Positions 13,934 to 39,000 of a DNA stretch of 63,435 nucleotides are shown in pieces. This DNA is from a virus. Its lineage: Duplodnaviria; Caudoviricetes. The stretch covers positions 1 through 63,435 of IMG/VR virus record IMGVR_UViG_3300033146_005951. One strand, 5' to 3'. Position numbers and translations under genes: made by a program. Positions within the stretch are counted from its first letter, which is position 1, and the number at the start of each line of letters is the position of its first letter. The notes below the pieces were generated by a model. The model was not told where the DNA came from. It did not search any database and saw only the letters and a program-made list of their open reading frames with translations.

Positions 13934-15013
13934 ATGAAAACGTTATTTTTGCGGAAAAAGATGTCCCTTTCCTCACCTGTTAAGTTTGATGCTCTTCTTC
14001 ATATCTCTAAAAAGCAAGAGGAGCCTGATCCTGGTGGTGAAGTCAAGCGAATTGTTGAAGGTAATGCAATAGTTGCCAAAAATATTGATGAGCAGTTTGA
14101 TGTGATTGATGTTGGTGCTCTTGGAAATGCAGTTGGGTATTTAAAAAAATACAAAACTGTTTTATTCAATCATGATCCTAATCGCCCAGTTGGTAAAATA
14201 CTTGATGCCGAAGTACGTGAAGATAAGATTTGGGTTCAAGTACAAATCAGCAAAGCTGAAGATGATTTGTGGGGGAAAATTATTGAAGATATTGTTAATA
14301 GTTTTTCTTTGAGTGGTGAGATTGATGATTTTGAGTTTAAATTTGATAAAAAATTGAATACTCAAGTTCGTATAATTAAAGCATTTCGGGTTCATGAAAT
14401 TTCTTTGGTATCAGTACCTGCAAATCCGGAAGCTAAGACTTTAAGTGCATACCTTACAAAGTCTTTGGATAAAGCAGGATATGACAGGGAGTCCTATGTA
14501 GAGGACGAGGAAAAACATAAAAAGTTTTTAAAAGAACTTGAATTTATTAACATTGCAATGGAGGTAACAAAAGCTATGAATTGGAAAGAAAAACTACAGC
14601 AGGCGATAAAGTCTATTGGGGAGCTTAGTTCTAAGATAGAAGATACGTCTATCCAGGATTCTTTGAAGAATATACAGAAGTTACTGACTGATGTACTGAC
14701 TGATGTATCTAAGGATTCTGACCCAAATGACGATAAGTCTTTGATTGAATTGAAAAATCTGATTAGTGAACTTGAGAAAAAATTTGCTGATTCAAACCAA
14801 CTTTCTCAGTCGTCAGTAGCTAAGGTGGATGATCTCGAAAAGAAAATCAGTGATGTTGATTCGGCTGTAGTCGGGTTGACTGAAATCATTAAAGAGCTCA
14901 TTGATTCTTCTGATGATGCTAATCCGACGGCTGAAGAAATCGAACTGGAGAAAGCCAAGAAGATTCTTCAGGATGCTGGCATAAACCCTAATTTGATTGG
15001 GGCTAGTTCTTAA
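13934..15013 (+). CDS. HK97-family prohead protease fused to a coiled-coil scaffold
   Basis: VLFNHD..PVGK, SFSLSG, HEISLVSVPANPEA; helical acidic C-terminal half. Confidence 0.9.
   Translation: MKTLFLRKKMSLSSPVKFDALLHISKKQEEPDPGGEVKRIVEGNAIVAKNIDEQFDVIDVGALGNAVGYLKKYKTVLFNHDPNRPVGKILDAEVREDKIWVQVQISKAEDDLWGKIIEDIVNSFSLSGEIDDFEFKFDKKLNTQVRIIKAFRVHEISLVSVPANPEAKTLSAYLTKSLDKAGYDRESYVEDEEKHKKFLKELEFINIAMEVTKAMNWKEKLQQAIKSIGELSSKIEDTSIQDSLKNIQKLLTDVLTDVSKDSDPNDDKSLIELKNLISELEKKFADSNQLSQSSVAKVDDLEKKISDVDSAVVGLTEIIKELIDSSDDANPTAEEIELEKAKKILQDAGINPNLIGASS
14576..15013 (+). CDS. Putative nested in-frame scaffold protein (MNWKEKLQQ...)
   Basis: GGAGGT at 14560-14565, 10 nt before the in-frame ATG at 14576. 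Confidence 0.55.
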   Translation: MNWKEKLQQAIKSIGELSSKIEDTSIQDSLKNIQKLLTDVLTDVSKDSDPNDDKSLIELKNLISELEKKFADSNQLSQSSVAKVDDLEKKISDVDSAVVGLTEIIKELIDSSDDANPTAEEIELEKAKKILQDAGINPNLIGASS

Positions 15014-18968: not shown

Positions 18969-21900
18969 ATGCCTTATAATTTACCTAAGAGGAGGATTTT
19001 TAACTACTCCAATTCACTTGGGCTATCAACCAGTAATGGTTGACGGAATCTCCTTGAATTCGAGGGAAGCCTTATCAGGTGGTGCTGAAGGTAATCTCGA
19101 GCTAAGCTCTATATATTAATATAGAGAAAGTGTAACGGCCATTCCGAAAGGAAGTACTTTACAAGTGTAAAGGAAGCGGGGAGCTCCTTATTAAAAACAA
19201 TAATATAGTGTAAGGCCTATGTTTAATAAGGATGGTGAAATGGTCTAATCTTTATGGAAACATAAAGTTGCAGGTAATGCTGCGAGTAAGGCTTAACGAA
19301 TCTTACTGAATATAAATGAAGTACAGTGCACAAAACTTCTCTATTGGACCTTGTGTTGTCTATATGGGGAATTTTTGCACATCCGGTTTGGCCACGTGTG
19401 AACCTCAGGTAGATGTCGGAGGTGTTAACTCTGGCGCTACACTGACTACTACGCGTGAGAAAACGGAGATCTTTCAAGGGTTCTAGGGAGCCGTCCTTAT
19501 AGGTAACTATGGGGATTATTACTCTGTGAATTGCTGGAATATCCTAAAGCCAAATAAACTACAAAGTAACCTTGAAATAGAGGTAAGCTTGAATGTTGCG
19601 AAAGCAGAAAAAATTATTTGGATTGCATAAGGTTAAATATCCTAAGTGTTAAGTTATAATGGACAATCAGCAGCTAAAAAATTAGTTCATCGACTATTCC
19701 GTAAGGAAGTACTCCGTAAGTACGGAGGAAGCGCAGAGCATCTATTAATTCAATAGATGAAGATATAGTCACAACTTCTTCAGAAATGAAGAGATGCTTA
19801 TTTATTAAGCAACGTAAAAGTAACGATTTTACGTAAGATTAGCAAGTCCCGAATGGTATAGACATGGTACAAGTTTAATACTTGTACTAGTATGGATGTA
19901 AATGAATGTTTGAGTTTGTAATCAATACTAATTCCTAAAGAGGAAATATAATGAGTTTAGATATAGATAAACTATTAGTAGATGTTTTAGATAAAGGTAG
20001 CACTTTTCATAATTACAGTGATAAGGTATCCAATCCAAAATTTAAGGCTGATATGGATTTTGATTTAAAACGCAGAAGAAATGAAGTGGCAAAGTTTTTA
20101 AAAGTTGTTGATTTGGAAGCTTCAAAATCAAATCAAACAGCTAGAGTTTTGCAAAAAGAAGGCTTTCAAGGTAGGATTCCAGAAAATTTAATTGAACTGG
20201 ATTTTGACTTTTCTTCAGTTAAATCTTCTGAGTTTATTCAAATCCTTGATGGGTTGGTATTTAGTGATGGGTATATATCAAAGAGTAATTTTAAATTAGG
20301 TTCTACTTTTCTTTGGTATGTTAATGCTGTACGAGGTTTTTTTGAGCATTTTAATTGGATTACTCGTTGGTATGCGTATCCAGATAAATCTGGCTGGACT
20401 GATAAGTTATCTTTTAATGTAGATACTTATCCTACACGAGACAATCCTTTTTCAATGAAAGCATATCGTAAGTGGTGGTATCCAAATGGAAAAAAAGTTA
20501 TTCCTAAAGATCTGGAAATTTCACCTCTAATGATGAATGCTGCGTGGTGTGGTGATGGTGGCTACATGAGTGATAATGCAGGTATGCTTTATACTAATAG
20601 TTTTACTGTTGAAGACGTAGATTCTTTTATATTACGTTTAAATAAGATCGTAGGTTGCAAAGCCAAAAGAAGATTCAAAAAACAAACTCAACCAGTAATA
20701 TTTTTCTCATCAGATGAATTCCAAAAGCTTTTATTGTTTATGGGTTCTAAACCTATAATTCCAGGTTTTGAGAAAAAGTTTATGATGCATCCAGATAATT
20801 TTCGGCGAGTGCCAGCAATGGTACGGGAAAAATCTCTTCTAATCAATGACGAAAGCTCAAAAGTCAAGGTTATTCAGCCTTGTGAGGGTAACGTACAGCA
20901 AGTTTTGCAAGATGTAAAGGACTTTGCTTCTTTAATTAATAGTGATGGTACTTTTATGATTCACAGGAAAACTAATCAAAGCAATTGTTTTGAGAGGCCT
21001 CAATACTTACCTGTATTAAAGATATCATCTACTAATAGAGAATTAGTTACTGCAGTAGCACGTAACTTACGATTATCTAGAATTAAAGAAACAACTCCTA
21101 AATATGGTATTGCACATAGATTTAGACTAACTACTACAGGCAGACCAGTCATTCAGTTCATTAAAAAACTCCTACCTTATTTAAATGAGGAGAAGAAAAT
21201 TGTGGCTGTTATATTATTAGCTTTGCCTATGGGTAGAGGTTATCATGAATTAAAACATTCAATCTATGAACAATTCTTAGAAACATCCAAGGCATTACAG
21301 CTGCAACGACTGAACGAAGAGACCCCACTGCAATTAAAAGTAGTGGGAGGTGCACCAGTCTAGTTGTTTAAAAAGACTTGTAATGAGTCACTTTATTGTA
21401 AAATAAAGTTTTATATGCAATCGAAACCCTAGTTGATCAATTTGCGACGCAGGAAACGGCTGTACTCAAGTTTGAGTCTATTGAGTGGAACGTTTCCAAT
21501 CTCGTTAAAGCTTTGAGTGCAGGTATTGTTACTCAAGGCACAGATGTAATTGATAAAGCATTAACTCAAGTTACTGCAAATGGTGATGCTGCAGAAACAG
21601 ACTTTACTTTTGCTATGACACCTACTACTGGTATGGCAGTATTGCCTGAATCAGTAATTGTGACAGATGGTACTGAGACATTTACTGATAATGGCGATGG
21701 TACTCTTACAGGTGATGCTACTGGTACTGGTACAGTAAATTATGCAACTGGTGCAGTTAGTGTATCTTTTAATGCTGCCCCTTCAGTAGGAGTAGGTAAC
21801 GTTACATGTGATGCAGATGAAGGAGAGCTTCTTTGTACTGTATCCGGAACGCCAACTTATAACATGCTGTTTTTAAAGTGGCCCTATGTAGCACCTAGTT

Positions 21901-22403
21901 CAGTAACTATTTATACTGGGGGGGGCTTAAGTTGTTCTGATGATGGCGCAGGTGGCTTGACTGGTGATATTGTAGCTGCAACTCCGCCTGACCCGGATAA
22001 TTCTATTGAATATGAAACTGGGCGTGTAGATGTAACTTGGAATGCTGCTCTTACTGCTGGCGAAGTAATTGTTGCTGCGTATGACGGAACAAAAACTGAA
22101 ACATTGAGTTTTGGCGGACAAATTTCTTTTATCGATGTTGCACTTAAACTAGTTCATGATACTCCAAAAGGTAGTACTATTACTATTAAGATTTGGAAGG
22201 CTCAGGGATCTGGTGCACTTGATATGACTTTTGGTGATGATGCCCATACATTCCCGATGGAGTTTAATGCAATGGTTCCGTTTGATCCATGCACTAAGCA
22301 AGTACTCGATTGGGCTGGTGATCCTCTTATCGAAGGTAAACAATTATTTGAGATAACAATTGAGAAGGCTGCCGGAACATGTACTGGTGATTGCGCCACA
22401 TAA
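18969..22403 (+). CDS. Major tail tube protein, spliced: join(18969..18986,19319..19481,19847..19852,21424..22403), 388 aa
   Basis: RBS ggagg at 18957-61. Exons total 1167 nt and read MPYNLP|KYSAQNFSIGPCVVYMG..GATLTTTREKTEIFQG|FP|KTLVDQFATQETAVLKFESIEWNVSNLVKALSAG.., joining ORF 21513..22403. The exon 3/intron 3 boundary is least certain. Confidence 0.8.
18987..19318 (+). ncRNA. Group I intron 1 (ORF-less, IA-like, 332 nt)
   Basis: P1 CCU|AAG:CUUGGG with U-G at the splice site; P10 AAGU:ACUU; P gaattcgaggga; Q aatctcgagc; P7 ggcca:tggtc with P7.1/P7.2 hairpins; P8 tccttattaaa:tttaataagga; terminal G 19318. Confidence 0.85.
19482..19846 (+). ncRNA. Group I intron 2 (ORF-less, IA-like, 365 nt)
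   Basis: P1 GGU|UC:GAGCC with U-G; P10 UCCC:GGGA; P gaattgctgga; Q aatcagcagc; R gttcatcgacta; S aagatatagtc; P3 ctctg:cagag; terminal G 19846. Confidence 0.9.
19853..21423 (+). mobile_element. Group I intron 3 (IB-like, about 1571 nt) carrying a homing endonuclease ORF
   Basis: Candidate IGS ttttcgg 20799-805; P2 gtgcca-gcaa-tggtac; P3 tctcttc:gaagaga; P7 gactg:cagtc; P8 cccactgc:gtagtggg; terminal G 21423. The 5' boundary is inferred from reading frame. Confidence 0.75.
19951..21363 (+). CDS. Intron-encoded LAGLIDADG homing endonuclease with three LAGLIDADG-like motifs
   Basis: ILDGLVFSDGYI, WWYPNGKKVIP, NAAWCGDGG, LYTNSFT (LAGLIDADG_2-like), plus DFASLINSDGTF. Confidence 0.85.
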   Translation: MSLDIDKLLVDVLDKGSTFHNYSDKVSNPKFKADMDFDLKRRRNEVAKFLKVVDLEASKSNQTARVLQKEGFQGRIPENLIELDFDFSSVKSSEFIQILDGLVFSDGYISKSNFKLGSTFLWYVNAVRGFFEHFNWITRWYAYPDKSGWTDKLSFNVDTYPTRDNPFSMKAYRKWWYPNGKKVIPKDLEISPLMMNAAWCGDGGYMSDNAGMLYTNSFTVEDVDSFILRLNKIVGCKAKRRFKKQTQPVIFFSSDEFQKLLLFMGSKPIIPGFEKKFMMHPDNFRRVPAMVREKSLLINDESSKVKVIQPCEGNVQQVLQDVKDFASLINSDGTFMIHRKTNQSNCFERPQYLPVLKISSTNRELVTAVARNLRLSRIKETTPKYGIAHRFRLTTTGRPVIQFIKKLLPYLNEEKKIVAVILLALPMGRGYHELKHSIYEQFLETSKALQLQRLNEETPLQLKVVGGAPV

Positions 22404-24091: not shown

Positions 24092-27000
24092 ATGGAAAAT
24101 ACAATAATTCCTTTAAGTTTTGATGTAAGTGCTCTTCAAGGCCAACTTGATGATATTACTAAAATAATGAATAAGACTTTTGCTTCGTTTGGTAGCAAAG
24201 GACAATTCAAAAGTCTTTCTACTGCCATGAATTCATTTAAAGGTAGTTTTGGTACTATCAATAAATCATTAAAAAGTATTGATTCTAATTTAGGTTTACT
24301 TGTCATTAATATAAATAAGATGTCGAGTAGTTTACAAGAAACAGGTAAAGAAATGAGTACCTTACGACAAGGTACTAAAGATAGTATTGTTACTACAGAA
24401 AAACTTGTTGGTGGTTTTAGTAAAGTTCAATCTGAAGTTAAAGAAACTCAATCATTATTAAAGAAACCTATGAGTTTAAATATTGATTTAGGTAAGACAG
24501 ATCTTGTAGGTCCTCTTGAAAAGCAATTAAGTACAGCACAACAAAAAATTAACCAAGCTTATAAATTTGAAACCCCTATTGGAAAGAAAGCTATATCTTT
24601 TGTTGATGAGACTAAAGTCAAAAATGATGTCAAAGTTTTTGAGAATGCTTATTCTGAAATTAAAAATTCGTCAGATGCTATGATAACTTATGTTCGTGGG
24701 ACTACTCGAGATATTCTTAAGCATCCTATGAATTCACTTGAGCAGTTTCAAAATTTATGGACTAGAACTATTTATAATCTACAGTCGCATAAGACAGGGC
24801 GAGAAGCAATTCCTTTATTCACTCTTACAGGTTCTGAGCTTGGCCCCATATCTGCTGCAATAGAAAAATTAGCTGAATTTCGAAAAGTAAGGCGAGGTTT
24901 AGATGTTGAATCCTTAAAGAGTTTTGAAAGTAGGCCTTTTGAAGAATTAGCTAAATCTTTAAGTAAATCTGGGTTTGCATATGACGAATTAATTGAAGCA
25001 GCTAGGGCTTTTAATGTATTGGAAGTAACTGGAGAAAAGCATATAGATGCTAATATTAAACAAACCAAAGAATATAAAGTTTTAGAAAAAGCTATTAAAT
25101 TATATTCAGAGGCTGTGGCTGTGGCTGATAGACAAATGGAAAAATCAGGAACAGTATCTGATGGGCAGGTAACAAAAGTAAAAAAATTAAAGCTTGCAAT
25201 GGATGAAGCAAGAAAGTCTGTAAGCTTAAAAGGAGAAATCGTATCAGTTAATGCTTTAGCTGGGACATTAGAAAATTTAGGTGATGTTGCCGGCACAAAA
25301 GTTACAGCTGCATTTCATAAGTTAGCTAGTTCATCTAAAAAGATTGGTAAGGAAACATGGGCTAAAGTTTTTGAGGCTAAAGATATTGGGGGATTTCAAA
25401 AAGCATTAGTTGTTTTAGAATCAAAATTAGGTCAAGTTGGTAAATCTAATCCACAAATTGAAGCGTTATATAAAAACTTTAGTAATATAAAACAAATTGC
25501 TGAAACTCATTTTGCTGCAAAGATGTCTGCTGAGTTTGAGGAAGGTGCAAGTAAATCTGAGAAAAAAATTGGTGAGTTATATACTAAGATAACTAAGTTA
25601 CAAAGTCAAGTTGCAAAAGGGGAGCTTCCTCAAAGTGCTTTAGTTGGTCCATTCAAAGCACTTTCAAAAGAAGTTGAATCTCTAATCAAACGCTCTCAAG
25701 TATTAAATGTTTCTTTAGATCAAATAGAGCAATCTAAGGGTCCTTCGGCAATGCGGTATGAGAAAGGACCGAAATCAAGTAGTACAGAATCTCGTGACCT
25801 TGCAACAACATATCAGGAAGGTGTTAGTGAAAAACAAATTTCTTCTTTAAGCACTCTTCAGTCTGGATTAAGAGGAGTTGCTGATCAATTAATATATGCA
25901 AATACTGAACTTAAGGTTTCTGAGGCTGCGTGGGTAAGTTGGGGAGAAGCTAGAAAAAAGATTGTTTTTGATCTTCGTAAAATTACAAGCGAATTTGAAG
26001 TACCGGTTGAAGATGTTTCTCGTACAGATATATCTAAGAAACATAGACAGTATGCAGATTATCAAAAACAAATTGATAGTTTAGTTAAAAAAAGAAAATT
26101 GCTTGGTATGGTTGATAAATCAAGCTATTCAGAATCTCTTTCACAAATGAAAAAAGTATTATCTGGATTACCTCAATTAAATGATTTACAAAAAAGAGGT
26201 AACCAAATTGTACGTGAAAGAAAAGCTTTACTTGATGCTACTGCAGGTAAAGAAAAGACCCCAGAACAAATAGCTCATCTTGAAAAATTAAAGAAGCAAT
26301 ATAAGGAAGTTAAAACTGCTGAAACCGAAGTTGCGAACGTTACTTTATTAATTGCAAATGAAATGGATGTTCTTGCAAGTAAGTCCGCTTTTAATCCAAC
26401 AGATATCGCACGTATCTCAGAGTTTGCTATTGAATTACAAAGAATAGATTCTCTTATTAAAACCATTAGCGGTAAGTCTTCATTGAGTATAAGCGCAGAT
26501 GTTGAAACCTTACAGAGAAGTTTAGGTACGATTAGTAAGGATGCTATTCCAATTAAGACAAAAATCACTATTGATCAGAAAGCAATAGATAAAGAGATTG
26601 CTACATTAGGCCAAAAATTTCATGCTGCAATGGCTAAAGAACCTAAAATTCGTACAGAGACAAGAACAAAAACTGCGTTACAAACTATCCGTTCAACTCA
26701 AAATGCAATTGGTAAGTTAGATAAACAATTGTTTGCAATGACGGATTCTGCAAATGTTGCTTTGCGTAATATCAGAATGGATAAAGCTTTAAATCCTAAA
26801 GATGCAGAGCAGTTAATGAAACCATTACAAAATTTAGTTTCTGAATTTTCTGGCTTACAAAAAGATATTTTGTTAATAGATGAGTCTTTAACTAAATTAG
26901 GTTCTAACCCAACTGAAGAACAAATGCAGAAGGCCTGGTCTCAGCTTGAGCCTGTCTTTTCTAATGCTTATGAGAAGATGAATTTATTTTCTGGGGTATA

Positions 27001-30000
27001 TGATAATCTTTCAAAAAAACAAGGTGGTGCGACTGCTGCAACTAATAATATGGTTTCATCACTAGAAAGGTTAATGCAAAAACCTACACGTGCAGCAAAG
27101 TCATTTGATATTTTAATTGATTCATTATTAAGAACTCAGGGTATAGCAGGAAAAACAGATTTAGCTAAACAGTTAAAATCCCCCGATAAAGCAATTCGTG
27201 AATATGCACAGAAAATTTCTGCGTCAATTGGAAAAGCAAGAACTGGCTTAGATACTATTGCTGGAGAAGCTCTTGGCCCTGAGGCAAATAAAAAAATTAA
27301 GCAGAATATAAAAAGAGCAGAAGAGAATTATGTGAAGCAGGTTGCTGATGCACAAAAGCGAGCCAGACGTAAATTAGACTCATTAATTAAGAAGGCAGAG
27401 GCTGGTCCTGGGTTAAAACGTAGTGGTGCTATTGATAGTGCAAAAGCGGCATTTGGTAAAGAAATTGGCGCATCTATTATTTCTGCAAAAAAAAGCTTAG
27501 AACAAGAGAAAGAAAGAATTCTTAATGTTCCTGTAAAATTAAAACCAGGTGTTGAGGCTGATCTTGTACTTAAAAAATGGAAAAGTACAATACAAGCTTT
27601 AGTTACTGATTTTGGTCAAGGAGGTAATTTAGCTGCTCAGAAATTTCAAGAAATGTATGCTTCAACAGCAGGCGGTTTTAAATTTGATCAGTCATTGTAT
27701 AATGTAGCATCTAAAACTAAAAGCTTATTGGGTCAAACTGGTTCGTTCTTTAAAACAATGGGCTCTCGTAGTGGTGATGTTCTGCCTTTAGAAGAATTCG
27801 ATCAATTAATTAAAAGACAAAAGCAGTTTCAAAAAGAAGGGGCACTTAGTACTGTAGCTCTTAATCCAATTATTGAGTTAGGTAGTGTTATATCAAATAC
27901 TGCTAATGTATTTGATAAGATGAAATTAGCAGTTAAAGCTTCTGCTTCTCCAGAGGTTATAGATAGTATTCAAAAAGAAATTGATCAATTCATACGTCTT
28001 CGTAAAACATCAAAAGATTCAACTGCACAATTATCTCAGCAAACTAAAGAAACCCGTGGCTTAGGTTTCACCATGGAAAAATTTGGTTATGCTATTGATC
28101 TCCTTATTCAATATTTAGAAAAAGCCATTAATAAATTTCAAGGTTTAGGTAAAACTGCGCACACTGCACTTAGTGGCATTGGGTCAAGTTTAAGAGGCCA
28201 AGCTGGTTTATTTAAATCAGGTTTAGCAGATATTGAAGGACCAATGTTTGATATTAAGCCTGAAGGATTTAAGTTAACCAAGCCTTTAGAGTCTATGTTT
28301 TCTGAGATATATAATTCTTCATTAACTAGTTTGCAAGATTTACGTAAGGTGACTGATAAAGGGTTATCTGCTTGGTCTGTAAGTTTTAAAGGAGGATTGT
28401 CGAAGACTGATAATGTAATAAAGCAAAATGGGTCTGCTTTAATTGGGGGTTTAAGTAAAATAAGAAAAAGTGTTCAAGCATCTACTGTTGTAAATTGGGG
28501 TAATATAATTGATCCTAAGGGGGCTGAATTATTAAGAAAATCAGCAGTGGGTATTGATTTACAATTAAAAGAACTGCAAACAAGTATCGCAAGGTTTAAA
28601 ACTGGTAAGATTTCAGAGGTATCTTCCTTTCCTACAGTTAAAGCTTTACAAACTCAATTAAAAACAGTATTATCTGTATCTGAAGAAGTTAAGCGTAAGC
28701 TTGCAGCAGGTAAATTAGGCATGGAACATTTTCCAGCAGTTGATAAATTACAACAATATGCCCTACAATTAACTGCTGCAATTGATATGATCGAAAAACC
28801 ATATAAATCTATGAAAGGATTAGCTGGTCAAGAAGAAAAAGTTAGCACAAAACAATTAGGCAAATCTTTTAGGTCAGGAATAATAGGTGCTCAAAAAGAA
28901 TTAGAGGCTGCTGTTAAACAGGTAAAGACTCCAATGAAGTCTGTTATGGTCAGGTTATTTGAAGACGTGCTTTCAATGACACCTACTGAGATTCCCCAGG
29001 CAGCAGGAATGATGAGGAGTTTAGCTGAACAGTTTCCAAGTCAAATGCAATCTGCTTTTAATGTAATGGGTAAGAAAAAATATGAAGTAGGTAAGTTCAT
29101 TGCAAAAATGTTTAGCATAGATCCAAGTGAATTTAAAACAGTTGAAGCAGCTATGGAAAAGAGGGGAGCTGAAATTCCTAAAATGCTTCTCAAGGCTATT
29201 TTTCTAACTGAAGGTCAGGCAAAGTTTGCAGCAGATGCAAAGAAGTTGGCTAATCAAGTAATTACTGCTCCCCTAAACAAAGCCCTTCGGTCAGCAGGAG
29301 AAGTCACTATGCCCAAATTCGAAACTTTTCGAATTGGTGATGAAATGATGAGAGCCGCAAAATTTGAAGGTGAAAAATTTACTCAAGTAAAGTCTCAATA
29401 CGGAACTTACATTTCAAGTTTAATTAATGATATAAGCAAACTTATGAAAGTTTCTCCATCAAAAACAATGAAACCAATATTGGAGAAAATTTTTAATGCA
29501 AGTGATGTTAATGATATTAATGCTTATGCAAATGGCATGAAAGGGGCTTTAAGCAATATAAAAGATTATCTTCAGAAAGCTGTATCTGGTAAATTGCCAA
29601 AAGGGCAATTAGCAGCTGGTTTAGGTTTGCAAGAAGAATTTAAAGTAGCAGGTTTAGATATAGATGAAAATGAACTATCTCAAATGTTTGAGCAAATGTA
29701 TAAGACGGCAGGTCAATCATTAAAAGATTTTGTTGCTCAAGAAAAAAGGTGGAGCTCAGATTCGATTAAAGATTTAATAATATTAATGGAGTACTGGGAA
29801 AATTTAGGTGGCATGGTTGATATGGTAACCAAAAAGATACCTAAAGTTTCTAATATGAAAAACATTTCTGAAACAATGTTTAAGGGCACAGAGAGCGGTT
29901 CAGTTGCAGCTGGCCGTGATATGGCTCGATTAATGGTTACAGCATTAACATCTACTTTATCTGAGGGAAGCGGAATAAAACAACCTTTAGCTGCAATGAT

Positions 30001-33000
30001 TGGCAAATCTCCTGAGGTCATATTTGAAATAATGCGAGGTACAAATCAAAAACTTAAAAATGAATTAAGAGATTTAGGTTTTAATTTACGTGGAAGTACT
30101 ACAGATTTAGTTAAAAGTATTTCTAAGTTGGGTGATGTAAAAGTAGGTACTGAATGGTTTGAACAATATAGATTGGCAAATGAGAGATTTAATATAGAAG
30201 GTGAAAAAACAGGCATAGTATTAAAAAAGATCCGTGATGGATTTAATACAATAACACCTTTAAGTTCTGAGGGGTTATCTGAACTTGCAACTCGTTCGCA
30301 AGATTTTCTTACTAGAGCAGGTATTGCATTTGAAAGCTTTGATACAAAGTTGTTTAAGCACTCTATTAACTTTAATGCATTTAGTGAAAAAGAAAAAGCT
30401 AATGTTGGAAAGTATACTAATATACTTTCTAAAGGTATGCGTACTATAGGACAATTCCTCCAAGAAGATCCTTTTTCAGGTAGCATAATGCGTTTAGTTA
30501 GAGAAGAAGATGTTCTTTGGGAGAAACTAATTGTTTCTGCTGATAAAGGAGGCAAGAAACTTAAAACAAGCATTCAATCTGAATTAGCTAGGGCACTTGA
30601 TACAACCAAACGTGAAGGAATTAATTTAAATAGATTATTCAAAGGCACTGGTAAAGTTCCTGAGCTCCAAGAAATTATTGGGCAGTTAATGGAGTTACGA
30701 AAAACCAAGCGTGCAGTTGATACTGAAATGATGGCACCTGGTGTTAGACCTTTTAGTAATCTTATTAAAGACGCTTCATTACTGCAAGGAACATTATTAA
30801 CTGCTTTTGGTAGTATATCTAAAGGATTGTCTCGTGTAGGTGAGACAGGCAAAGTAGATATTAAGATGGGCAATTCTATCAGAAATCTTGATACAGTTAC
30901 TCAACATTTAAATATACTTCAAGCAGAAATTGACGAAACAATTGCATATGCAAAAAAGACAGGTCAAACTTTACCTTTAGAGTTTCAATTAGTAACGCGC
31001 TCAGTTTCAGATATGGGTTCGAGCCTTAATAGTTCATATGAAGTTTTAAAAAAGTTACCTACTCACGCAAAGGTCTCTGAAAAAGATATGGAGAAACTTG
31101 CTGAGACAGTAAATAAATCTGCAAGCGCTTTGAAGAAATTTGATCAGATAGATCTTAAAGAATTTTCTTCTAGAGTAGGTACAGCAATGTCTATTGCTAT
31201 GAATAAGGTTAATGCTTTTAGTAAGCAAGCTCAAATAAGGCCTTCATTTCAGCTAGGTAAAACTGGTGTTGATCAAATACTTAAAGCTACTGGCAGTGAT
31301 TCTGATAAGATGATTCAGCAATGGAGAGAGTCTGCTGTAGCAGGTGGTGATACATGGAAACAGATGACAATGTTTCTAAAAGAATTAGAACCTGAAATGA
31401 AAGGAATTTTTGAACGTTTTGCAAGTAAGCCTAGATTATTATTAAAAGCTTTTGATAAAATGACTCCCCAGATGAGAATATTAATGTCTTTATATTTTAA
31501 TGAAATGGGTCATTCTACCGCACAAGGTTTTCAAAAGTGGATGCAGACATATGATAAATATTTTAGCGGTATGACAAAAACAAATAAAAGGCATCTTGAA
31601 ACCTTTTTAGGATATACCTCTCAAACTATGGCATCTTTTAAAGCCCCTGATGTAACTAAGTATTTTGCTCCTGAAACAGGATTAGAAGCAGATAAAACAA
31701 CAGAAGGGTTAAAGAGGCTTGGTAATGCTTTATCTAAACTTGGCATTAATATGAAAGAATTAAAAGATCTTTCTGGAGATACTTCGTGGTTGAAAAAGTG
31801 GGGAGAAGCTTTTGCTACACCTATAGATTGGGATTTTGGCCCAGGCAAAGGGAAGACAATTCAACTTACTGGTACGTTTAGTATGTTTGCTAAAGCAATT
31901 ACTCATGTAGGTGAGGGGTTAGATATATTAATGACTCAGTTGCGTAGAGTAGGAGAAGAAACTCAATCTGGTGCAATTCAAAAAGGAATCAAACAATTAG
32001 TTGCCCTCATTATGCAATTAGATGCTGAGTTTAGTAAAACTTCTAAATTTAAATTATCTATTGGTGCAGGATTAAGTACAAGCTTAAAACCTTTAAGAGA
32101 TGTAGGTTATGCAATAAATAGTTTCTTTGATGCAATGGAAAAAATCAAACTTGCTTCAGATTTTACTTTAACTCAAAAAGAAATTAGTTCATTTGGTAAT
32201 ATAGTTATAATAACAATGAATCAAGTTGCTGCTGCAATGAGTCCTGCTGTTAAAGCTTTAACTGGGTTTGCAAATACAACTGCTGTTAAAAGATTCTCTC
32301 AGTTTGCTCAAGGATTACGTGATTTAGTTGCTGCGACAAAAGACCTTTATCAATTTACAGCTGTATTTAGTGAGATAGACAAAGATTCTAAAAAAGGAGC
32401 TACTGCGTTAGGTCATTTTGAAAAAGTAATGAAATCAATGATGATCTTATTGAATAGCATTCCTGATATATCTAAAAAACTTAATTTTGGTGTAAGTAAA
32501 GATGCAGCAAATAATGCTAGAATGCTTGTTGAGGTATTAAAGCCACTGGCTCAATCTATGTTAATGATTGGTGAGGCTTTTAAAGGAAATGTTAATATCG
32601 AAAGCAATATGAAGAGATTTTCTTCAGCTTTAAAAGGAATGATTAATGTTATTAGAAGTGTTGATTTAGATCCAGTAACTAAAGATTTATTAAATGATAT
32701 ACGTAAACTAACTCAAATATTTAGTTCTAAAGCTTTAGTTGCAACACCTGATGAGGCAGAAAAAAGGCTTCAAGTCTTGGCTCAAGTAATTGAGCAAGGA
32801 TCAAATAAAGTTGCACAAAAAACTAAGCAGGGTATTGAGAAGATGAATCGAGCTTCAAAGACCCCAAAGACTGATTTTTTAACTGATTTAGGTATTACTC
32901 CAGGCAAGGCTACAGGTGGTGGGGGTATTGTATCTGATTTAATGGATATTCAAACTAGTTTTTCAGAGCCAGTGCCAAATTTTGATGCCAGTGAACAAGC

Positions 33001-36000
33001 AATGGGGCATTTAGCTAGTGCTGGAAAAGAAGTAGGAAAAGTACTTCAAGTTATTAACAATGCTGTAATTAAGTTAGGTTCAGAATTTAAAGAAATTCTT
33101 CCTGGAGAAGAAAAGTTTATTACAGAATTGACTCAATTAGCTGCATTGAATCCTGCTGCAGCTATTGATAAATTAAATATTAAATTGAATTCGTTAGGTA
33201 AAAATTTAGCGGGTGATAATTTAAAGAAATCACAAGATGCAATACAAGGGTTTATAATTGAATTATTAAATGGTGCTGCAGGTCTTAAATCAATGGGTGC
33301 TGCAGGTACTGAACTGCAGAAGATCCATGATAACTTAAATAAAGATACAGTTAGCACTAAAGAATTAACTATTGCATTGACAAAAGTTAAAGGAGTTTTA
33401 AAGAGTGTAGAGGTTGAATCTGCAAAACTTGATTTACAAAATCGATTATTAAAAACAAGAGGGGAGGCTAAAGGTGTCCATACAGAAATAAAAAGTTTAC
33501 TTATGTCTATGAAAGCATTAGGTCCCGAGTTTAGAAAATCTCTTTCTACTGGTGATGCTAGGCGTGAATTCCTTTCTTATTCAAATGAGCTAGGTTCAAA
33601 ATTAGAGACTGCAATGGGTCCAATGAGGGCATTTTCTGGATTCAAAGGAGTTAGCGAAGAAATTAAAAAAATGACTTCGAGTATGGCCGTATTAAAAAGC
33701 CAATCTCAAGGCATGGTTACTTTAGCAGATCGGTTTACAGGTAAATTAAGAATTGCAGGAGATCAGTTTTTAAATCTAGTTGCATATCAAACTAGGTGGT
33801 ATGTTTCACAACAAATCTTTTTTATGGGGTTTGGTCAGATACAAAAAATACTTTCTAATTTTGGTGCTTTGGATATTCAAGTAAGAAGAGTTCTTCGTGT
33901 TCTTCGTGATTCTAATAATGCAGTGTTGGGTATTGATTCTTCAATTCGGGCTTTATCTGGAGCAGGTGTTAAGTGGGCTTCTGATTGGGCTCAGAATATG
34001 GAAGTAATGTTTAAGGCCCAGACAAGATCTACGTTTTATAGTTTATTTAAACAACTTGGTACAACCTCTGAAGAAATTGGTGAGTCCATGTATCAGTTGG
34101 GTTCTGCAGGTTTGCAAGCAAATGAAGTAATGTCTGCCATTGAACCAACTCTTCGAATGATAATTGCTACTGAAGGTGAAGTTAAAGATACTACTCGATT
34201 GATAGCAGGTGTTTTTAATTTATATGGAAATTCAATTGAAGGAGCAAGAACAAATACTGAAAAGTTTGTATATATCACTGATGTATTAACTGCAACATTT
34301 AGAGATCATATGGTTACGATTGGAGAACTCATTACTGGTATAAGTTATACAATCGCTACTGCTAAACTTTCTGGTATGCAATTTGAAGAAGTAACTGCGG
34401 CACTTGCAGTTTTAAATGATAATATGTTAAAGGGTTCAAAGGCGGGCCGTGCATTTAATAGGATGCTTTTAAATTCAACTAAAAGATTAGATGAAACAAA
34501 AGATATTTTACAAGCAATTGGAAATCAGGCAAATATAGGAGTTGATTTAACAAAGATTTTTGAGGGGTTGGAAGTCAGTGGAGCTAGACCATTTGATTAT
34601 ATTATTCAAGCTGGCATAGCAATGCAAGAACAATTAAAGACTGCTAATCTTACAGTAGAGAATTTAACTAGGACTTTTAAGTCTATGGGTGTAGTTGGTG
34701 CTCGTGCTTTTGCCATCCTTTTATTAAAAGCTGGTGATTATGAAAAGACATTATTTCAGTTAAAATATGCTGCGTTTAGTGCTGGCGAAGATATGTCTGA
34801 ATTATTAATTGGTGGTTTTGATAGATCAATTCATCGAATTGAAGGTTTCACTCGAGCAGGTTATGCGCGTGTAATGGGAATAGCTCGTGGCGGCGTTACC
34901 GTATTAGCTTCAATGGTTCAGCAAGTAGAAAGTGGTATTAAGAGAATTTCTGAAATGCCTTTTATTCCAGATATTCCAGATGTTAAAAGTTATATTTCAT
35001 TTTTTGGTGTAGTTGCAACTGGTGCTGCAATATTTGCTGGAATTAAGAAAAAGCCTTTGCCTGGATTAGATGCTTTGAGGTTTGATAAGTGGGCTAAAGG
35101 AATTAATAAGTTTACTCTTAATATAGATCAAAACAGAACTGCATTAAAGTTACTCAATGTTGAATTAAGAAAGACTGGATTAAATGCAATTAATTTAGGT
35201 CAAGCATATGAAACTGCAGCAAATAAAATGACTGCAATGAGTAAAATGGGATCTACAATGTCTACGTTTAAAGGACTAACTGGATTAACGTCGTCTTTTA
35301 AACCTCAACAACAACTTATTATATCTGGTTTAAAAGATATTGAAAGAGCTTATACAAAAGTAACTTCAGGCAAATGGAGTATGGGAGATCTGACTGAATT
35401 TAATAGCCAGATGAAATCAATTGCTGCATTCGAACCGACTTTCTTAGCCCGTGAGAAAGAATTTACTATTAAAACTAATTTAACTCGAACCATTAGTGAG
35501 TTTCAAAGAGGATCAATTTCTGCTGATCAATTTAGAGATAGACTTAATGCTGTTCATAAAGAAACTATTAAAGCCAGTGGAATGTCAAATTTAACTACTA
35601 AATTAGATATTTTCGAAAAAGAATTAGCAAGTGGTTCTATGACTATGAGCCAATATACTACTAAATTACGTCAGTTGGGTATTGAAGCAAATAAATTAGG
35701 TAGTATAAAAACTTTTGGATTAGGTGCTGTATCTACAAAAGGATTTGCTGAATCATTTAAAGGAATGAGTAAGTTAAATAAATTATATTCTTCGAACATG
35801 GATCAAATGAGCAAGATAGGCATTAAGTCTATGGATCAAGTTTTTAATTTAGTTAGAAATCCTGCAGCTTGGAGTGAATTTGCATCTAATATGACTAAGA
35901 GTTATAGTAAATTTGATTCTCAAACTCAAAAAGTTTCAAATCAGTTTGGTAGGTTAGTCGATCAAATATCAACACCAATTCGTAAAGTATCTATAGGAAT

Positions 36001-39000
36001 TTCTCAAGATGCTATGGAAAAAGATTTTGTTAAGCAAACAAAAAGCATGTCTGTTTTAAAAGAATCTTGGAAAGGATTTGCAGGAGGTGTTGGCCTTGGT
36101 ACTTCAAAGTTAACAAGTTGGTTTAAAACTATGCGAAAAGTAATGAGTGGCATAGTTCCTCAAATTGGAGAATTTGATTCTTCATTCAGTAAAGCAGTTG
36201 CCAAACGTGAAGCTTTAGTTAAGGTAGCTGCAGGATTTAGAGGAATAGGTGGAGCAGCACGTGGAGCAGCTATAGCAGTTAAAGGATTCTTAGCGTCTAC
36301 TATTGCACTTTTAGCTTTATCTGTTGCAGTGCAAAAAGCTTTTGAGTGGTTCGAAAAACTTTCGCGTGGTACTGAGTATTATGCACAAATATTGGGTACA
36401 GTAAACGCTGAATTTAATAAAACTGTTGCAAGCCTTACAGGAAATATATCAGGAATTACTAGATATGTTGATAAGCTTAGTGAATTACGTGAGTCCATGA
36501 ATATGCGTCTTAAAATTGATGCGGATATAGAAACCAAAGAATTTAATAGAGATTTGTCTCATTTAAGTGGTTTATTAGAAGGTACTTTTCAATTTGAAAA
36601 TTTTGAATTTAATGTAAAATATGGTACTGTAACTGATGCAATTGTTGCTTGGAGGGATTTAAATGATGTTATTGCAAATTTAAAAGAAGAGACATCAAAT
36701 AAAGCAATTGGTCGATTTGTTGAATTAGGCAATGAGTATAAAAAGGCAAGTGAAATTTATAAAAATACAATTACAACTGCACTCGAAGGTTCTTGGTTGA
36801 AATCTCGTTGGGATTCTTTTAGGGGCAAAGAGAAAAGCACTAGTTTAAAAATTAAAATAGAAGATTTGAGTGACCCAGATAAAGTTAAATTTAAACGCCA
36901 AGGCCAAGAAGCAGCCAAGCTCATGATTGATTCAGCTAAAATAGTTTTGCAGCAGGGCGCTACAACTTTTGATTTAGTGTGGGATAAAAATTCAATTGCT
37001 ACTTTCGATCGACAATTAAATAATGTTTTTGAATCTACAACTTTGTTTGGTGATAGCCTCAAAACTACTAATTTAAAATTTAATGTTTTTATTAAAAGAA
37101 TGAAGCAAAGTGCAAAAACTGCTGAATTATTTGATCAATTTAAAGAAGTTGGTGAAAATTTAAACAAGGTATTTCAAGTAGGGGGTGCTGAAGAGTTTGC
37201 TACTTTTATGAAAATGTTTCCTAATTTAGCTTCTGAAAGTAAAGATGAAGTTAAAGGTCTTGCTGATTCGTGGGCTAGTTTAGGGGAAGATGAGAGAGCA
37301 GTTGTTTTGATTAACGCAGCACGTAAAGATCTTAAATTATTTCATAAATCTATGAAAGCAGTTTCTGCAGATGGTAGCATGTTACAAGCAGCAGATTCAA
37401 CTAAAAAATTTGTTGAGGTTGCTATTACTGACATATCAATGTTAAATACTAGTATTGCACAGATGGGAGGTACATTAGCAAGAGAATTTGAAAGTACTTG
37501 GAGTCGTGCTTGGGGTCAATGGGTCAATGAAGGAGTTACTGCTTCACTTGATGTAGATAAAGCTTTAACTGGTTCTTTTGAGTATGGTTCAAAATCTATT
37601 TTAGGTAAATTAGAAAGAGATATTTCAAAAACCACAGATCCAATAGTTAAGAGTTTTACTTCAGCATATACAAAAGTGGGTAGCGTTTGGGCTAAAGAAA
37701 CCTCTAAAATGATAAAGGACAATAAACTCCCTAAAGCATTTAGTAATTGGGGTAATGAATTAAGAGTTGCTTTAACTAGTCCTTGGGCAAAAGCTAGATC
37801 AGCACAAGATGAGTGGCGTTCAGGTATGAACAATGCTGTTGATGCTGCAATGATGAGATTTAATTTATTGCAAGAATCAATGTCTAAAATGGGTAGTTTA
37901 GTTTCAGAAGAGTGGCTGCGCGCTCAATCAGCAATATCCAATAACACTTCATTTGGTTCTGAAAAAGATGGTGAGGATGCAATAGAAAAATTTACTGATG
38001 GAATAGAGAAATCTTTAAAAGCAGCAATTAAGAGTGGTCATAAGGGAATTCAAGATTTAGCAAAGGCTATGTCTGGTGATGTATCAGGTGCAATAGATTT
38101 AACAGTTAAGCGCATGGAACGCTTAACTAATGTAATTGCACAAGCTAAGAGTCTCAGTATTGAAGTAAAAGATGCAATAAGTAAGTGGGAGGGTAGTATT
38201 GTTTTAACAAATAAAGTTCTTAGTGTTACTCTTGATTATTTGAAGAAGTTTGCTAAAAATGCTGATATATCTAAAACAGTTCGAGATATGAATGTTGCTT
38301 TATTAAAGAATGAAAAACTTAGAGCTAAAGAAGCATTTGAAAGGGGAAAAAAGTTAGGTGTCTCTGATGAGGATAAATTGAAAGGGGCTAAAACTTATTT
38401 AGAAAGATTAGATCAAATCAACGAGAAGCTGATGTCTTCAGCAGTAGAAAGCCTTAAGAAGCATATATCAGATAAGGCTAAAGCTGAAAAGAAAGAAATG
38501 ATTGAGCGACATAAACGAGAGAACAGAGCAGCTAAAGAAAGCCAGTCTTTACGAAAAATATCTTATCGTGAAGAAGTTAAAGATGCAAAAATTCAAGCTG
38601 CTTCTATAAAGAAAATTGAAAAGCTTAGGTGGAAAAGACCAGGTTATAAGGCAGATGTTGATCAGAAAATTGAAAATGAAAAAATGTGGGGTGAGCGATC
38701 TCGAGATGAAAATAGGCATAATAGCGAAATGTCAGCTCAACAAAAAAAGTTTAATGATGATGCAACAAAAGCTCGTAAAGAAAGACAAGCTGCTGAGTTA
38801 AAAACACTTGAAGAGACTGGCGGAAAAACTGCTAAGTCAATGCAAAAATTAGCTGAAGTTTTGGCTGATATTGACAGTGGTGAATTAAAAATAAAAAGTA
38901 TGGATGAATTATTAGTTCATATTACTTCATTGGGTGATCCTGAATTAACTAAGAATTTTAAGTTATATTTAGATGAAATCAAAAATACTAATGTGGAAAT

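Follow-up and report, generated by a model that had tools for sequence, protein, structure and literature searches.

Group I introns are taught to choose their 5' splice site through a U-G wobble in P1. The stretch of phage DNA analysed here (63,435 nt, hereafter the window) carries, from position 18969, a gene interrupted by three introns of the self-splicing type, two of them six bases apart, and raises the question of whether the third can be cut after an A. A sequence-only reading of the window had described a 6-nt exon shared by two ribozymes and an apparent A-U pair where intron 3 has its 5' splice site, with an ordered, twintron-like pathway as the other option. The sequence elements that it named were all found in place: TCCCGA at 19847-19852, GGGA at 19486-19489, TTTTCGG at 20799-20805, and G21423 followed by AAACCC. 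The features of the locus are collected in Table 1.

Table 1. Exons, introns and predicted structural elements of the three-intron gene
Feature	Position	Strand	Description and basis
Exon 1	18969-18986	+	18 nt, MPYNLP; AGGAGG ribosome-binding site 5' of it; homolog N-termini, X1 contig
Intron 1	18987-19318	+	Group I, 332 nt; U precedes the cut, terminal G19318; RF00028 67.9 bits at 18977-19267
Exon 2	19319-19481	+	163 nt, last base U19481; homolog alignment
Intron 2	19482-19846	+	Group I, 365 nt, terminal G19846; RF00028 77.3 bits at 19461-19793
Exon 3 (micro-exon TCCCGA)	19847-19852	+	6 nt: completes the Phe codon (two bases), encodes Pro and opens the Lys codon (one base)
Intron 3	19853-21423	+	1571 nt under the productive reading; equivalent placement 19854-21424
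LAGLIDADG homing-endonuclease gene	19951-21363	+	470 aa; PF03161 at aa 97-260, E 1e-11; phrog_11023, E 2.9e-17
Guide a (candidate)	20799-20808	+	The guide of the sequence-only reading; 20802-20805 pairs with 19849-19852, A19852 opposite U20802
Hairpin (P2 in the sequence-only reading)	20809-20824	+	6 bp, GCAA loop, -8.1 kcal/mol; 3' strand overlaps guide b
Guide b (candidate)	20821-20828	+	Corresponds in position to the relatives' guide; G20821 stands 12 nt 5' of P3
P3, 5' strand	20833-20839	+	Pairs with 21316-21322; each strand unique in the region; identical in L059
P4, 5' strand	20845-20850	+	Pairs with 21148-21153; MFE fold and by-eye analogy to L059
P6, 5' strand	21154-21157	+	Pairs with 21300-21303; adjoins the 3' side of P4'; by eye, same motif and place in L059
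P7, 5' strand	21308-21312	+	Pairs with 21356-21360; fold of 21304-21365; aligned with P7 of L059, L007 and L056
P8 hairpin	21324-21347	+	8 bp, fold; each relative has a different hairpin at the same place
Terminal C and G of intron 3	21422-21423	+	CG invariant when the window, L059 and L007 are aligned at their 3' ends
Exon 4	21424-22403	+	Completes the Lys codon (two bases) and continues with TLVDQF... up to the stop; homolog alignment

Exon structure of the host gene

The product of the host gene is probably the major tail protein, given its position after the head and adaptor genes. Joined together, the four exons make 1167 nt and encode 388 aa with no internal stops. This product and the intron-less homologs P0003-P0006, each likewise 388 aa long, aligned without gaps at 82-89% identity; P0003 matched it at 99 of the first 100 positions. 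The variant X1 is about 5% diverged from the window (118 differences and 4 gaps over 19572-21700), and among the differences listed all seven in exon 2 fell at third codon positions. A host protein search for related loci returned three, at 53% identity. Phage GenBank records yielded no relative of exon 4 and no DNA match to the 3' core of intron 3, a match of only 154 nt for intron 2, and endonuclease domains that were only 28.5% identical.

Independent insertions and the six-nucleotide exon

Introns 1 and 2 are ordinary group I introns, with RF00028 scores above threshold, U before the cut, a terminal G, and precise absence in relatives. Intron 1 is missing from an X1 DNA contig, in which 18986 is joined to 19319, and in a 151-nt X3 contig 19481 is joined directly to 19847 and the sequence continues to 19963, which confirms the boundaries of both introns at the DNA level. 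Read by eye, P1 of intron 2 pairs 19476-19481 with 19493-19498 and places U19481-G19493 at the cut, and a possible P10 pairs 19486-19489 with 19847-19850.

The X3 contig carries intron 3 without intron 2, and X1 carries introns 2 and 3 without intron 1. Both arrangements contradict the twintron-like pathway, and the six bases between introns 2 and 3 are exon sequence; the micro-exon is the product of two independent insertions, and the three introns of the gene are independent insertions standing side by side. The 6-nt exon itself proved real, supported by the X3 join, the homolog alignment, and Phe-Pro-Lys in all 14 homologs that span the region (63 hits in all). The sequence-only reading had added that the two ribozymes could not hold this exon at the same time. 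The overlapping pairings on which this was based are real, but mutual exclusion would go a step further than they do; in the Tetrahymena tandem system, disruption of P10 only lowered splicing, according to the accessible text of PMC10136302.

Core of intron 3 and its relatives

No match to Rfam RF00028 was obtained within 19853-21423 at E up to 10, whether the whole window or stretches of 2.9 kb, 661 nt and 135 nt were searched, and intron 3 did not reach the gathering threshold of the model (50 bits). As controls, the relative L007 was also blank and the compact relative L059 scored just 18.4 bits (E 0.019), indicating that the model is insensitive to this lineage. The P3-J3/4-P4 and P6'-P7-P3'-P8-P7' elements of intron 3 are shared by the loci L059, L007 and L056, and in L007 and L056 both sides of P3 are changed at three positions. 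On the strength of these shared elements and their covariation, intron 3 is read as a probable divergent group I intron whose core is homologous to that of canonical relatives.

At locus L059 a compact intron interrupts a major head gene (phrog_267, 1e-42); it has 21 bases identical to the window at 20829-20849 and the same P3 and P3'. L007, with copies L012, L016, L025, L026 and L058, is inserted after ...FGP in a homolog of the same host gene family; it has a 5-bp P10 and a related endonuclease gene that likewise reads through P7 to P7'. The placed 3' ends of L007 and L059 are a terminal G, and in all three relatives a P1 hairpin bearing U-G immediately precedes P3, with P2 absent. Unlike them, intron 3 of the window has its endonuclease domain on the 5' side of the guide and an additional hairpin, and it offers no pair of canonical sites that is in frame.

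The predicted helices of intron 3 stand in the right order, with a P3-P7 pseudoknot, P8 between P3' and P7', and P4-P6 between P3 and P7 (P4 and P6 placed by eye); about 296 nt between the P4 strands code for the C-terminal domain of the endonuclease. In P7 the candidate G-binding pair is G21308-C21360, with C21307 bulged and A21306-U21361, and intron 2 has the same layout. Topology alone is not above chance, as a loose group I descriptor matched 256 of 300 shuffles. The best-architecture score was reached by 9 of 130 shuffles, and the hand-built model of intron 3 lay near the shuffle mean, which is not significant.

The endonuclease open reading frame scored 45.5 bits against PF03161, for which the cut-off is 25. 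It reads through the guide, P2, P3 and P4, and again through P6', P7, P3', P8 and P7', with its stop codon directly after P7'. The codons over P2'-P3-J3/4-P4 and P6'-J6/7-P7 are invariant in all four close homologs (39-95% identical), among which those over guide a differ, and LQRL(N/S) occurs near the C-terminus in seven of ten aligned sequences. Neither the protein nor its homolog alignment retrieved a relative from viral contigs or genome contigs. The 98 nt ahead of the open reading frame were searched for the 5' half of the core, and nothing complementary to P3' or P6' turned up.

An exact 20-mer of the R region had no match in viral contigs. The R-pattern scan returned 50 loci in viral contigs, roughly the number estimated for chance, and an open-frame filter kept seven, six of them real relatives. 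The 5'-core pattern found only L060, on the same contig as L059, in metagenome contigs; in genome contigs it found 20 loci, and only L073 (the same as L007) looked real by eye. A 7-nt direct repeat (19852-19858 and 20817-20823) was considered as an insertion scar and rejected, since the implied compact form could not form P1.

Reading frame and boundaries of intron 3

Comparative data show the length (1571 nt) and the frame of what would have to be removed as intron 3. At the DNA level the intron-less motif is restored only by one of the two equivalent placements given in Table 1, so the productive cut would fall after A19852, or equivalently after A19853 with A21424; only these rebuild Phe-Pro-Lys-Thr. 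The same junctions are kept in X1 and X3. An assembly error at the splice sites, which the sequence-only reading had named as a point to check, is unlikely: the differences listed for the X1 and X3 contigs include none at 19847-19855, and an X2 contig that spans 21347-21497 showed no differences from the window.

A script that combined every 5' end in 19846-19899 with every 3' end in 21380-21444 returned 476 stop-free in-frame joins; joins beyond those listed share their 3' partner sets with listed ones by 3-nt periodicity. Among the joins listed, and by this periodicity, a U as last exon base is in frame with a terminal G only for U19876 with G21408, G21417 or a G deeper in exon 4, and for the exon-skipping U19481 with G21417. 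The enumeration agrees with the sequence-only reading that a U as the last exon base cannot keep the frame with terminal G21423; the cut after A19852 rebuilds the conserved protein, with its invariant Phe-Pro-Lys-Thr and 388 gap-free residues. G21423 is the sole G that gives the productive frame together with A19852.

The canonical sites predicted by homology, U19854 and G21423, are 2 nt out of frame with each other. The productive cut itself has no U-G wobble: A19852 faces U20802 in guide a or A20823 in guide b, and the U19854-G20821 pair lies 2 nt away. Relatives carry 1-nt indels at 19890, at 21409 (a deletion in X3) and behind 21418 (an insertion in X1), which mark those stretches as non-coding. 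In the frame that runs on from the exon, two of the X1 changes listed, 19856 and 19874, hit second codon positions, and another, 19857, hits a third.

Two candidate guides for one exon

Guide a was originally picked by the earlier reader with the junction already known. Its pairing can be extended by 20807-20808 with 19847-19848, C20806 being bulged, so that all six exon bases are paired, and 20799-20801 could form a P10 with 21424-21426; the computed duplex energy is -11.0 to -11.7 kcal/mol. The 7-mer TTTTCGG is unique in the region and, as had been claimed, perfectly complementary across the productive junction and located directly 5' of the hairpin and P3. When the intron was dinucleotide-shuffled 2000 times, 248 of the shuffles contained a 7-mer complementary across the junction, and its occurrence is not significant by itself; the chance expectation is about 0.16 matches in 1565 positions, from which our own arithmetic derives about 0.001 for a 10-nt placement window. 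The weight of the match is its location 3 nt before the hairpin, not its existence.

Guide b, overlooked in the sequence-only reading, matches the placement seen in the relatives, since the guide G of L059, L007 and L056 lies 12 nt before P3 in all of them and its equivalent in the window is G20821. It pairs with 19847-19854 at seven of eight places, with a U19854-G20821 wobble and A19852 opposite A20823 (-10.4 kcal/mol). This guide sets U-G at U19854, two bases inside the productive intron, so the A-U pair is one of at least two possible geometries. The strongest computed duplex (-13.1 kcal/mol) involved 20824-20828 together with 20809-20814, and not guide a. The loop of the hairpin has U in place of C in X1, as implied by an Ala-to-Val change in P0067.

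The reading that we favour, giving it an even chance of being correct, is that three independent mobile group I introns occupy one gene and that intron 3 would be cut after A19852 through guide a, with A-U replacing U-G. The LAGLIDADG gene would fill a long P1 loop and then continue through the ribozyme core. The intron would sit inside the Lys codon of the invariant Phe-Pro-Lys-Thr, six bases past intron 2, and a working tail protein would require a 5' cut after A19852 and exon ligation after G21423. The newer guide (20799-20808) would pair along the full length of the micro-exon and with exon 4's first three bases, putting A-U at the usual place of U-G, while the ancestral guide (20819-20828) may be locked up in a GNRA-capped hairpin of 6 bp, which would now act as P2. 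Self-splicing of the RNA, the guide used and the exact cut in intron 3 are matters that we infer from the sequence. Counted against the favoured reading are the blank RF00028 result, a topology not above chance, the homologous guide G at 20821, and relatives without P2; in the literature searched, no published natural group I intron cut after A was found.

Alternative readings

A bolder proposal, which we regard as unlikely, is that both guides could serve the same exon. The ancestral one would set U-G two bases too far 3' and the newer one A-U, and formation or melting of the hairpin at 20809-20824 would choose between them, deciding the frame of the tail protein.

The same junction might also be produced with the ancestral guide b (20821-20828), the cut falling two bases 5' of U19854-G20821, where A19852 and A20823 are mismatched. 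Such a cut would stretch further the one-base displacement of group B IStrons, whose U-G lies one bp off the proven splice site with a loop after it (accessible text of PMC4227781), as in the window. The positional homology of G20821 to the wobble G of L059, L007 and L056 and the seven paired places out of eight speak for guide b, but a precedent for a two-base shift was not found, the local hairpin (-8.1 kcal/mol) competes for 20819-20824, and no P10 adjoins this guide. We consider this rather improbable.

Quite improbable, in our view, is a canonical cut after U19854, paired with G20821, followed by ligation after A21425, which would remove 19855-21425, leave the intron with a terminal A and give Phe-Pro-Asn-Thr. 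Such a cut would use a canonical wobble at the homologous guide, the join 19854/21425 is in frame, and a natural intron without a terminal G reportedly exists in Coxiella 23S rRNA. However, it would replace a Lys that all 14 homologs covering the region share, the aligned terminal CG is C21422-G21423, there is no P10, and an exon substitution would be needed besides the insertion.

Use of both homology-predicted canonical sites, U19854 and G21423, would make an mRNA 2 nt too long that ends in ...FPNKP-stop, so that the gene would be dead or only a minor mis-spliced fraction productive; we hold this to be quite improbable too. Against it, the arrangement persists in at least three diverged variants (window, X1 and X3), the exon changes among the differences listed are confined to third codon positions, and X1 has kept its endonuclease gene and exon 4 intact (P0067 95% and P0002 90% identical). 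Rescue of the canonical product by frameshifting or slippage was rejected, as it needs a -1 shift and inspection by eye revealed no slippery heptamer or other site restoring the frame.

A longer exon 3 (U19876 with G21417 or G21408), or skipping of exon 3 (U19481 to 21418), would keep both U and G canonical. Either is very unlikely, even though these are the sole in-frame joins of U with a terminal G (among the joins listed and by periodicity) and a 9-bp helix of 19868-19876 with 19912-19920 includes a U-G wobble. About 10 residues would be inserted into the invariant Phe-Pro-Lys, or the motif replaced; the X1 change at U19874 breaks the helix, and the changes at 19856 and 19874 would alter second codon positions. 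The longer exon 3 with the intron ending at G21417, named in the sequence-only reading as a case that would overturn it, fails because the 1-nt X3 deletion at 21409 and the 1-nt X1 insertion behind 21418 would shift the frame. It is equally hard to credit that there is no intron at all and that a free-standing endonuclease gene splits the host gene into two separately translated pieces: in X1 a frame is open from just past the endonuclease stop into exon 4 (P0002), but that frame is closed in the window, the first in-frame start in exon 4 (TTG 21513) would lose 30 conserved residues, the flanks rebuild Phe-Pro-Lys-Thr exactly, and a group I core homologous to relatives of the spliced type is present.

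Discussion

Micro-exons and cuts after bases other than U are, as such, already published, the latter with G in group B IStrons. According to the accessible text of Tourasse et al. (2014, PMC4227781), the ribozymes of these IS607-type IStrons, such as BcISt1 of Bacillus cereus, have a proven cut after G, which is the only experimentally shown purine exception that we found in print. Intron 3, with its predicted splicing, would resemble them in having a purine before the cut, a U-G displaced from the cut and then a loop, and a terminal G; it would differ in having A rather than G, a two-base shift or a second guide rather than a one-base shift, and a LAGLIDADG endonuclease rather than a transposase.

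Short exons between group I introns are described, in the accessible text of PMC10136302, for orf142 of Staphylococcus phage Twort (three group I introns, with a 23-nt exon) and for the 23S rRNA of Coxiella burnetii (two introns flanking a 34-nt exon). There, as in the window, a short exon has to serve two introns, at the 3' site of the first and at the 5' site of the second, and exon skipping is a known risk. In contrast to these cases, the exon of the window is 6 nt long, its skipping would give a UAA stop, and the flanking introns belong to different families. A further parallel is placozoan cox1, with a 1-nt exon between two group IB introns and RNA evidence (PMC5436844, in the part available); there too, neighbouring independent group I introns have left an exon of a few bases, and since that exon is C, its downstream intron also lacks U before the cut. 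Mini-exons 'occur regularly' in mitochondrial genes, in the wording of the available part of PMC10352661. Unlike these organellar micro-exons, that of the window is in a phage.

Among phages, the accessible text of PMC11878797 reports for Bastillevirinae a small exon flanked by two introns in phiNIT1, found by cDNA sequencing, and exon skipping in SIOphi. Common to the window and these phages are more than one group I intron per gene and the presence of phrog_11023 LAGLIDADG genes; that text mentions no non-U site for the Bastillevirinae introns, unlike what is proposed here for intron 3.

The locus adds to these systems a 6-nt phage exon shared between two unrelated ribozymes, and a putative group I intron lineage that the Rfam model does not detect. 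With the removal of 1571 nt fixed and the canonical sites 2 nt out of register, a conserved and apparently functional phage gene would depend on a cut after A. The locus lends itself, as a compact natural system, to testing how far from the wobble a cut can be moved, or whether A-U can replace it, in a construct of about 2.3 kb, which becomes far smaller once the endonuclease gene is removed. Should the two-guide proposal be true, intron 3 would be a natural example of a group I intron cutting after A and, at the same time, an inbuilt switch over a structural gene's output.

The interrupted gene and its homologs

The window is a single 63,435-nt IMG/VR virus record. The interrupted gene starts at an ATG (18969) with an AGGAGG site in front. 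Genes at 13934, 15060 and 16502 upstream encode a head protease-like protein, a major head protein and a head-tail adaptor, respectively, and small ORFs followed by a 6418-aa ORF are found downstream; from this gene order, we infer that it encodes the major tail protein. A Pfam search with its protein found nothing. Through the intron-less homolog P0003, which matches phrog_2175 over the junction region with E 1.8e-13, it was assigned to that family, annotated 'protein with Ig domain'. The 6418-aa sequence is a single ORF (24092-43348, plus strand) located after tail-region genes; its first 1000 aa had no PHROG match, and, given where it lies, it may encode a giant tape-measure or virion protein.

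Searching proteins with exon 4 gave 63 homologs, four of which are 388 aa long and read MPYNLP/KYSAQ...EVFQG F-P-K TLVDQF... uninterrupted. The FPK motif is kept in all 14 homologs covering the region, the remaining 49 hits being fragments or matches to the Ig-like part only. The joined exons (1167 nt, 388 aa) align without gaps to all four 388-aa homologs (82-89% identity), and their product agrees with P0003 at 99 of the first 100 residues.

Exons and introns of the interrupted gene, and the related intron at locus L007
Feature	Position	Length	Content
Exon 1	18969-18986	18 nt	
Intron 1	18987-19318	332 nt	
Exon 2	19319-19481	163 nt	
Intron 2	19482-19846	365 nt	
Exon 3	19847-19852	6 nt	
Intron 3	19853-21423	1571 nt	
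Exon 4	21424-22403	980 nt	
L007 intron	L007 2454-3641	about 1.2 kb	361-aa LAGLIDADG gene inside

Independent insertion of the introns

Introns 1 and 2 were detected by Rfam (67.9 and 77.3 bits). The Rfam alignment of P1 in intron 2 was off; by eye, the actual P1 pairs 19476-81 with 19493-98, with U19481 facing G19493. Over 154 nt, the intron 2 segment 19525-19678 matches an unannotated part of Staphylococcus phage PT1-4 (PP212901.1) at 83.8% identity, which suggests that the intron 2 lineage may be common to very different phages.

Intron presence in relatives was read from Logan contigs (DNA only). A contig of the close relative X1 joins 18986 to 19319, so that intron 1 is absent, and has a different 693-nt insert between 19405 and 19409 (exon 2, at ...EP/QV...), followed by intron 2. 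A 29,301-nt X1 contig spans 19572-21700, differing from the window at 118 positions and showing 4 gaps, and therefore contains intron 2, exon 3 and intron 3. In a 151-nt contig of X3, 19481 is joined to 19847 and on to 19963, that is, intron 3 without intron 2, and a contig of X4 shows an intron-less allele (...GFPKT...). This mixed presence indicates that the three introns are independent insertions, which rules out the twintron idea raised for introns 2 and 3 in the sequence-only reading; the 6-nt exon is the remainder between two neighbouring insertion sites. With the 693-nt insert of X1 and the L007 site (after ...FGP) counted, introns are inserted at five or more sites in this gene family.

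Group I nature of intron 3

Rfam gave no group I match on intron 3. A loose topology descriptor matched 256 of 300 shuffles, the best real architecture score was equalled by 9 of 130 shuffles, and a hand-built model scored near the shuffle mean. A P3/P7/P8/P4/P6 topology of such strength is common in AU-rich sequence in these tests, and the group I case therefore rests on homology.

The intron at L007, the locus of P0076 (one of the more distant endonuclease relatives), interrupts a homolog from this host gene family. It follows ...RLSFGP, a junction confirmed by the intron-less P0015 (RLSIGP-GVIYLG), and its features include a terminal G, a 5-bp P10 and a 7-bp P1 hairpin containing U-G. Its J, P3, J3/4 and P4 align to window 20829-20856, and its P6'-J6/7-P7-P3'-P8-J8/7-P7' block to 21298-21360. 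L007-type introns are also present in L012, L016, L025 and L026/L058, and a 104-nt stretch around the L007 R element, starting 12 nt ahead of the pattern and ending 75 nt beyond it, is identical at five IMG/VR loci on four contigs. Pattern scans found two more relatives, L056 and L059. The latter interrupts a major head gene (phrog_267, 1e-42) and is compact, with no ORF inside; 21 of its bases are identical to window 20829-20849, and its P3/P3' is the same (alignment A6).

The Rfam group I model RF00028 matched L059 over its full length but below threshold (18.4 bits, E 0.019) and L007 not at all, so the blank on the window reflects insensitivity to this lineage. Across the window, L059, L007 and L056, seven P3 pairs are kept, with both-sided changes at three positions; P7 is constant and P8 is a different hairpin in each. 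By eye, P4/P4' and P6/P6' of the window parallel those of L059. We conclude from these alignments that intron 3 belongs to group I and that its L1, P5 region and L6 contain large coding insertions.

Predicted splice sites and possible competing guides

Among the joins enumerated by script, only 19852/21423 and the equivalent 19853/21424 yield the conserved FPKT. For 5' ends at U, a terminal G in frame was available only to U19876 (G21408 or G21417); joining U19481 to G21417, which skips the exon, also keeps the frame. These U/G-canonical alternatives were rejected on comparative grounds: X1 has 1-nt indels (an insertion behind 21418, a deletion at 19890), X3 has a 1-nt deletion at 21409, and X1 substitutions at 19856 and 19874 fall at second codon positions of the run-on frame. 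In exon 2, 7 of 7 X1 changes among the differences listed are at third codon positions. The earlier observation of a 6-nt exon, with A as the base before the predicted productive cut, is confirmed. In P0011, from a Logan contig (host protein 47% identical), the ORF call begins M-KTLIDQ, exactly at the Lys of FPK, a hint that this relative has another intron, with its end directly upstream of the Lys codon and possibly a U ahead of the cut.

In all three relatives (L059, L007 and L056), the G that forms the U-G wobble on the guide side is located exactly 12 nt upstream of P3; P2 is lacking, and P1 leads directly into J and P3. The equivalent in the window is G20821. This ancestral guide (20821-28) pairs with 19847-19854 at 7 of 8 places (-10.4 kcal/mol), with five pairs to UCCCG, A19852 facing A20823, then A19853-U20822 and U19854-G20821. 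At the intron 3' end, a CG (C21422-G21423) is invariant in the alignment of intron 3 with L059 and L007 (alignment A7). Homology therefore predicts a canonical cut after U19854 and ligation after G21423, which would remove 1569 nt and give ...FPNKP-stop. This sharpens the splice-site anomaly: sites predicted to be canonical are present, but they miss the host frame by two bases.

The guide TTTTCGG (20799-805) is, as originally noted, a perfect complement of the productive junction CCGA/AAA, and with C20806 bulged this guide (20799-20808) pairs to all six exon bases (-11.0 to -11.7 kcal/mol). Although 12% of shuffles contain such a 7-mer at some position, the one here is placed 3 nt upstream of a 6-bp GNRA-loop hairpin (20809-24), which is followed by J2/3 and P3; with P2 present, this is the canonical guide location. 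The ancestral guide region forms the 3' strand of the hairpin. A 7-nt direct repeat (19852-19858/20817-20823) was also found, in which the first intron 3 bases repeat the loop and 3' strand of this hairpin, and because of it 19854-59 can also pair with 20809-14 (-13.1 kcal/mol structure).

In the simplest productive model, to which we give an even chance, the newer guide would pair with the micro-exon, the old guide would be sequestered as P2, and an A-U pair would stand at the cut; the original interpretation is partly supported. Use of the ancestral guide with the cut displaced by two bases is unlikely. A canonical cut with terminal A21425, which would change Lys to Asn, is slightly more doubtful, and canonical, non-productive splicing, ending in the FPNKP-stop product, a little more so. 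The minor alternatives are each very improbable.

The endonuclease gene

The LAGLIDADG gene of intron 3 (19951-21363) has few close relatives, three at E <=1e-30 among 612 at E <=1e-3. Among the four closest sequences (alignment A1), codons over P2'-J2/3-P3-J3/4-P4 and P6'-J6/7-P7 are invariant, and those over the guide at 20799-805 differ. More distant relatives (alignment A2) retain LQRL(N/S) and a short C-terminal motif with variable spacing, which would fit a gene that continues through P7, P3', a variable P8 and P7'. Residues 281-300, over the guide, hairpin and P3, are 20 residues missing from the more distant A2 homologs, and in L007 the corresponding RNA elements are upstream of the ORF. 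This suggests in-frame uptake of the 5' portion of the ribozyme core between two protein domains. P0069 (JGI contig, 466 aa) has an N-terminal part with the C-terminal motifs of the family (...LQRLNEG...) and then a complete second LAGLIDADG domain (A2), and looks like a possible read-through of two adjacent elements.

Comparison with published introns

According to Tourasse et al. 2014, the last exon base is practically always U, exceptionally C, and BcISt1 splices after G by RT-PCR, its U-G pair being displaced by one bp, with a loop after it (PMC4227781). Group I introns separated by short exons are described for Twort orf142 (23 nt) and Coxiella 23S rRNA (34 nt), both with exon skipping and both longer than the 6-nt exon 3 (PMC10136302), for phiNIT1 (a 'small exon', size unspecified; PMC11878797) and for placozoan cox1 (1 nt; PMC5436844); in mitochondria, mini-exons are said to occur regularly (PMC10352661). 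A literature search for a group I cut after A found no printed case. Micro-exons and non-U cuts are both known as categories; what would be new is the combination predicted from sequence, in which the cut follows A, the canonical sites expected from homology miss the frame by two bases, and two guides compete.
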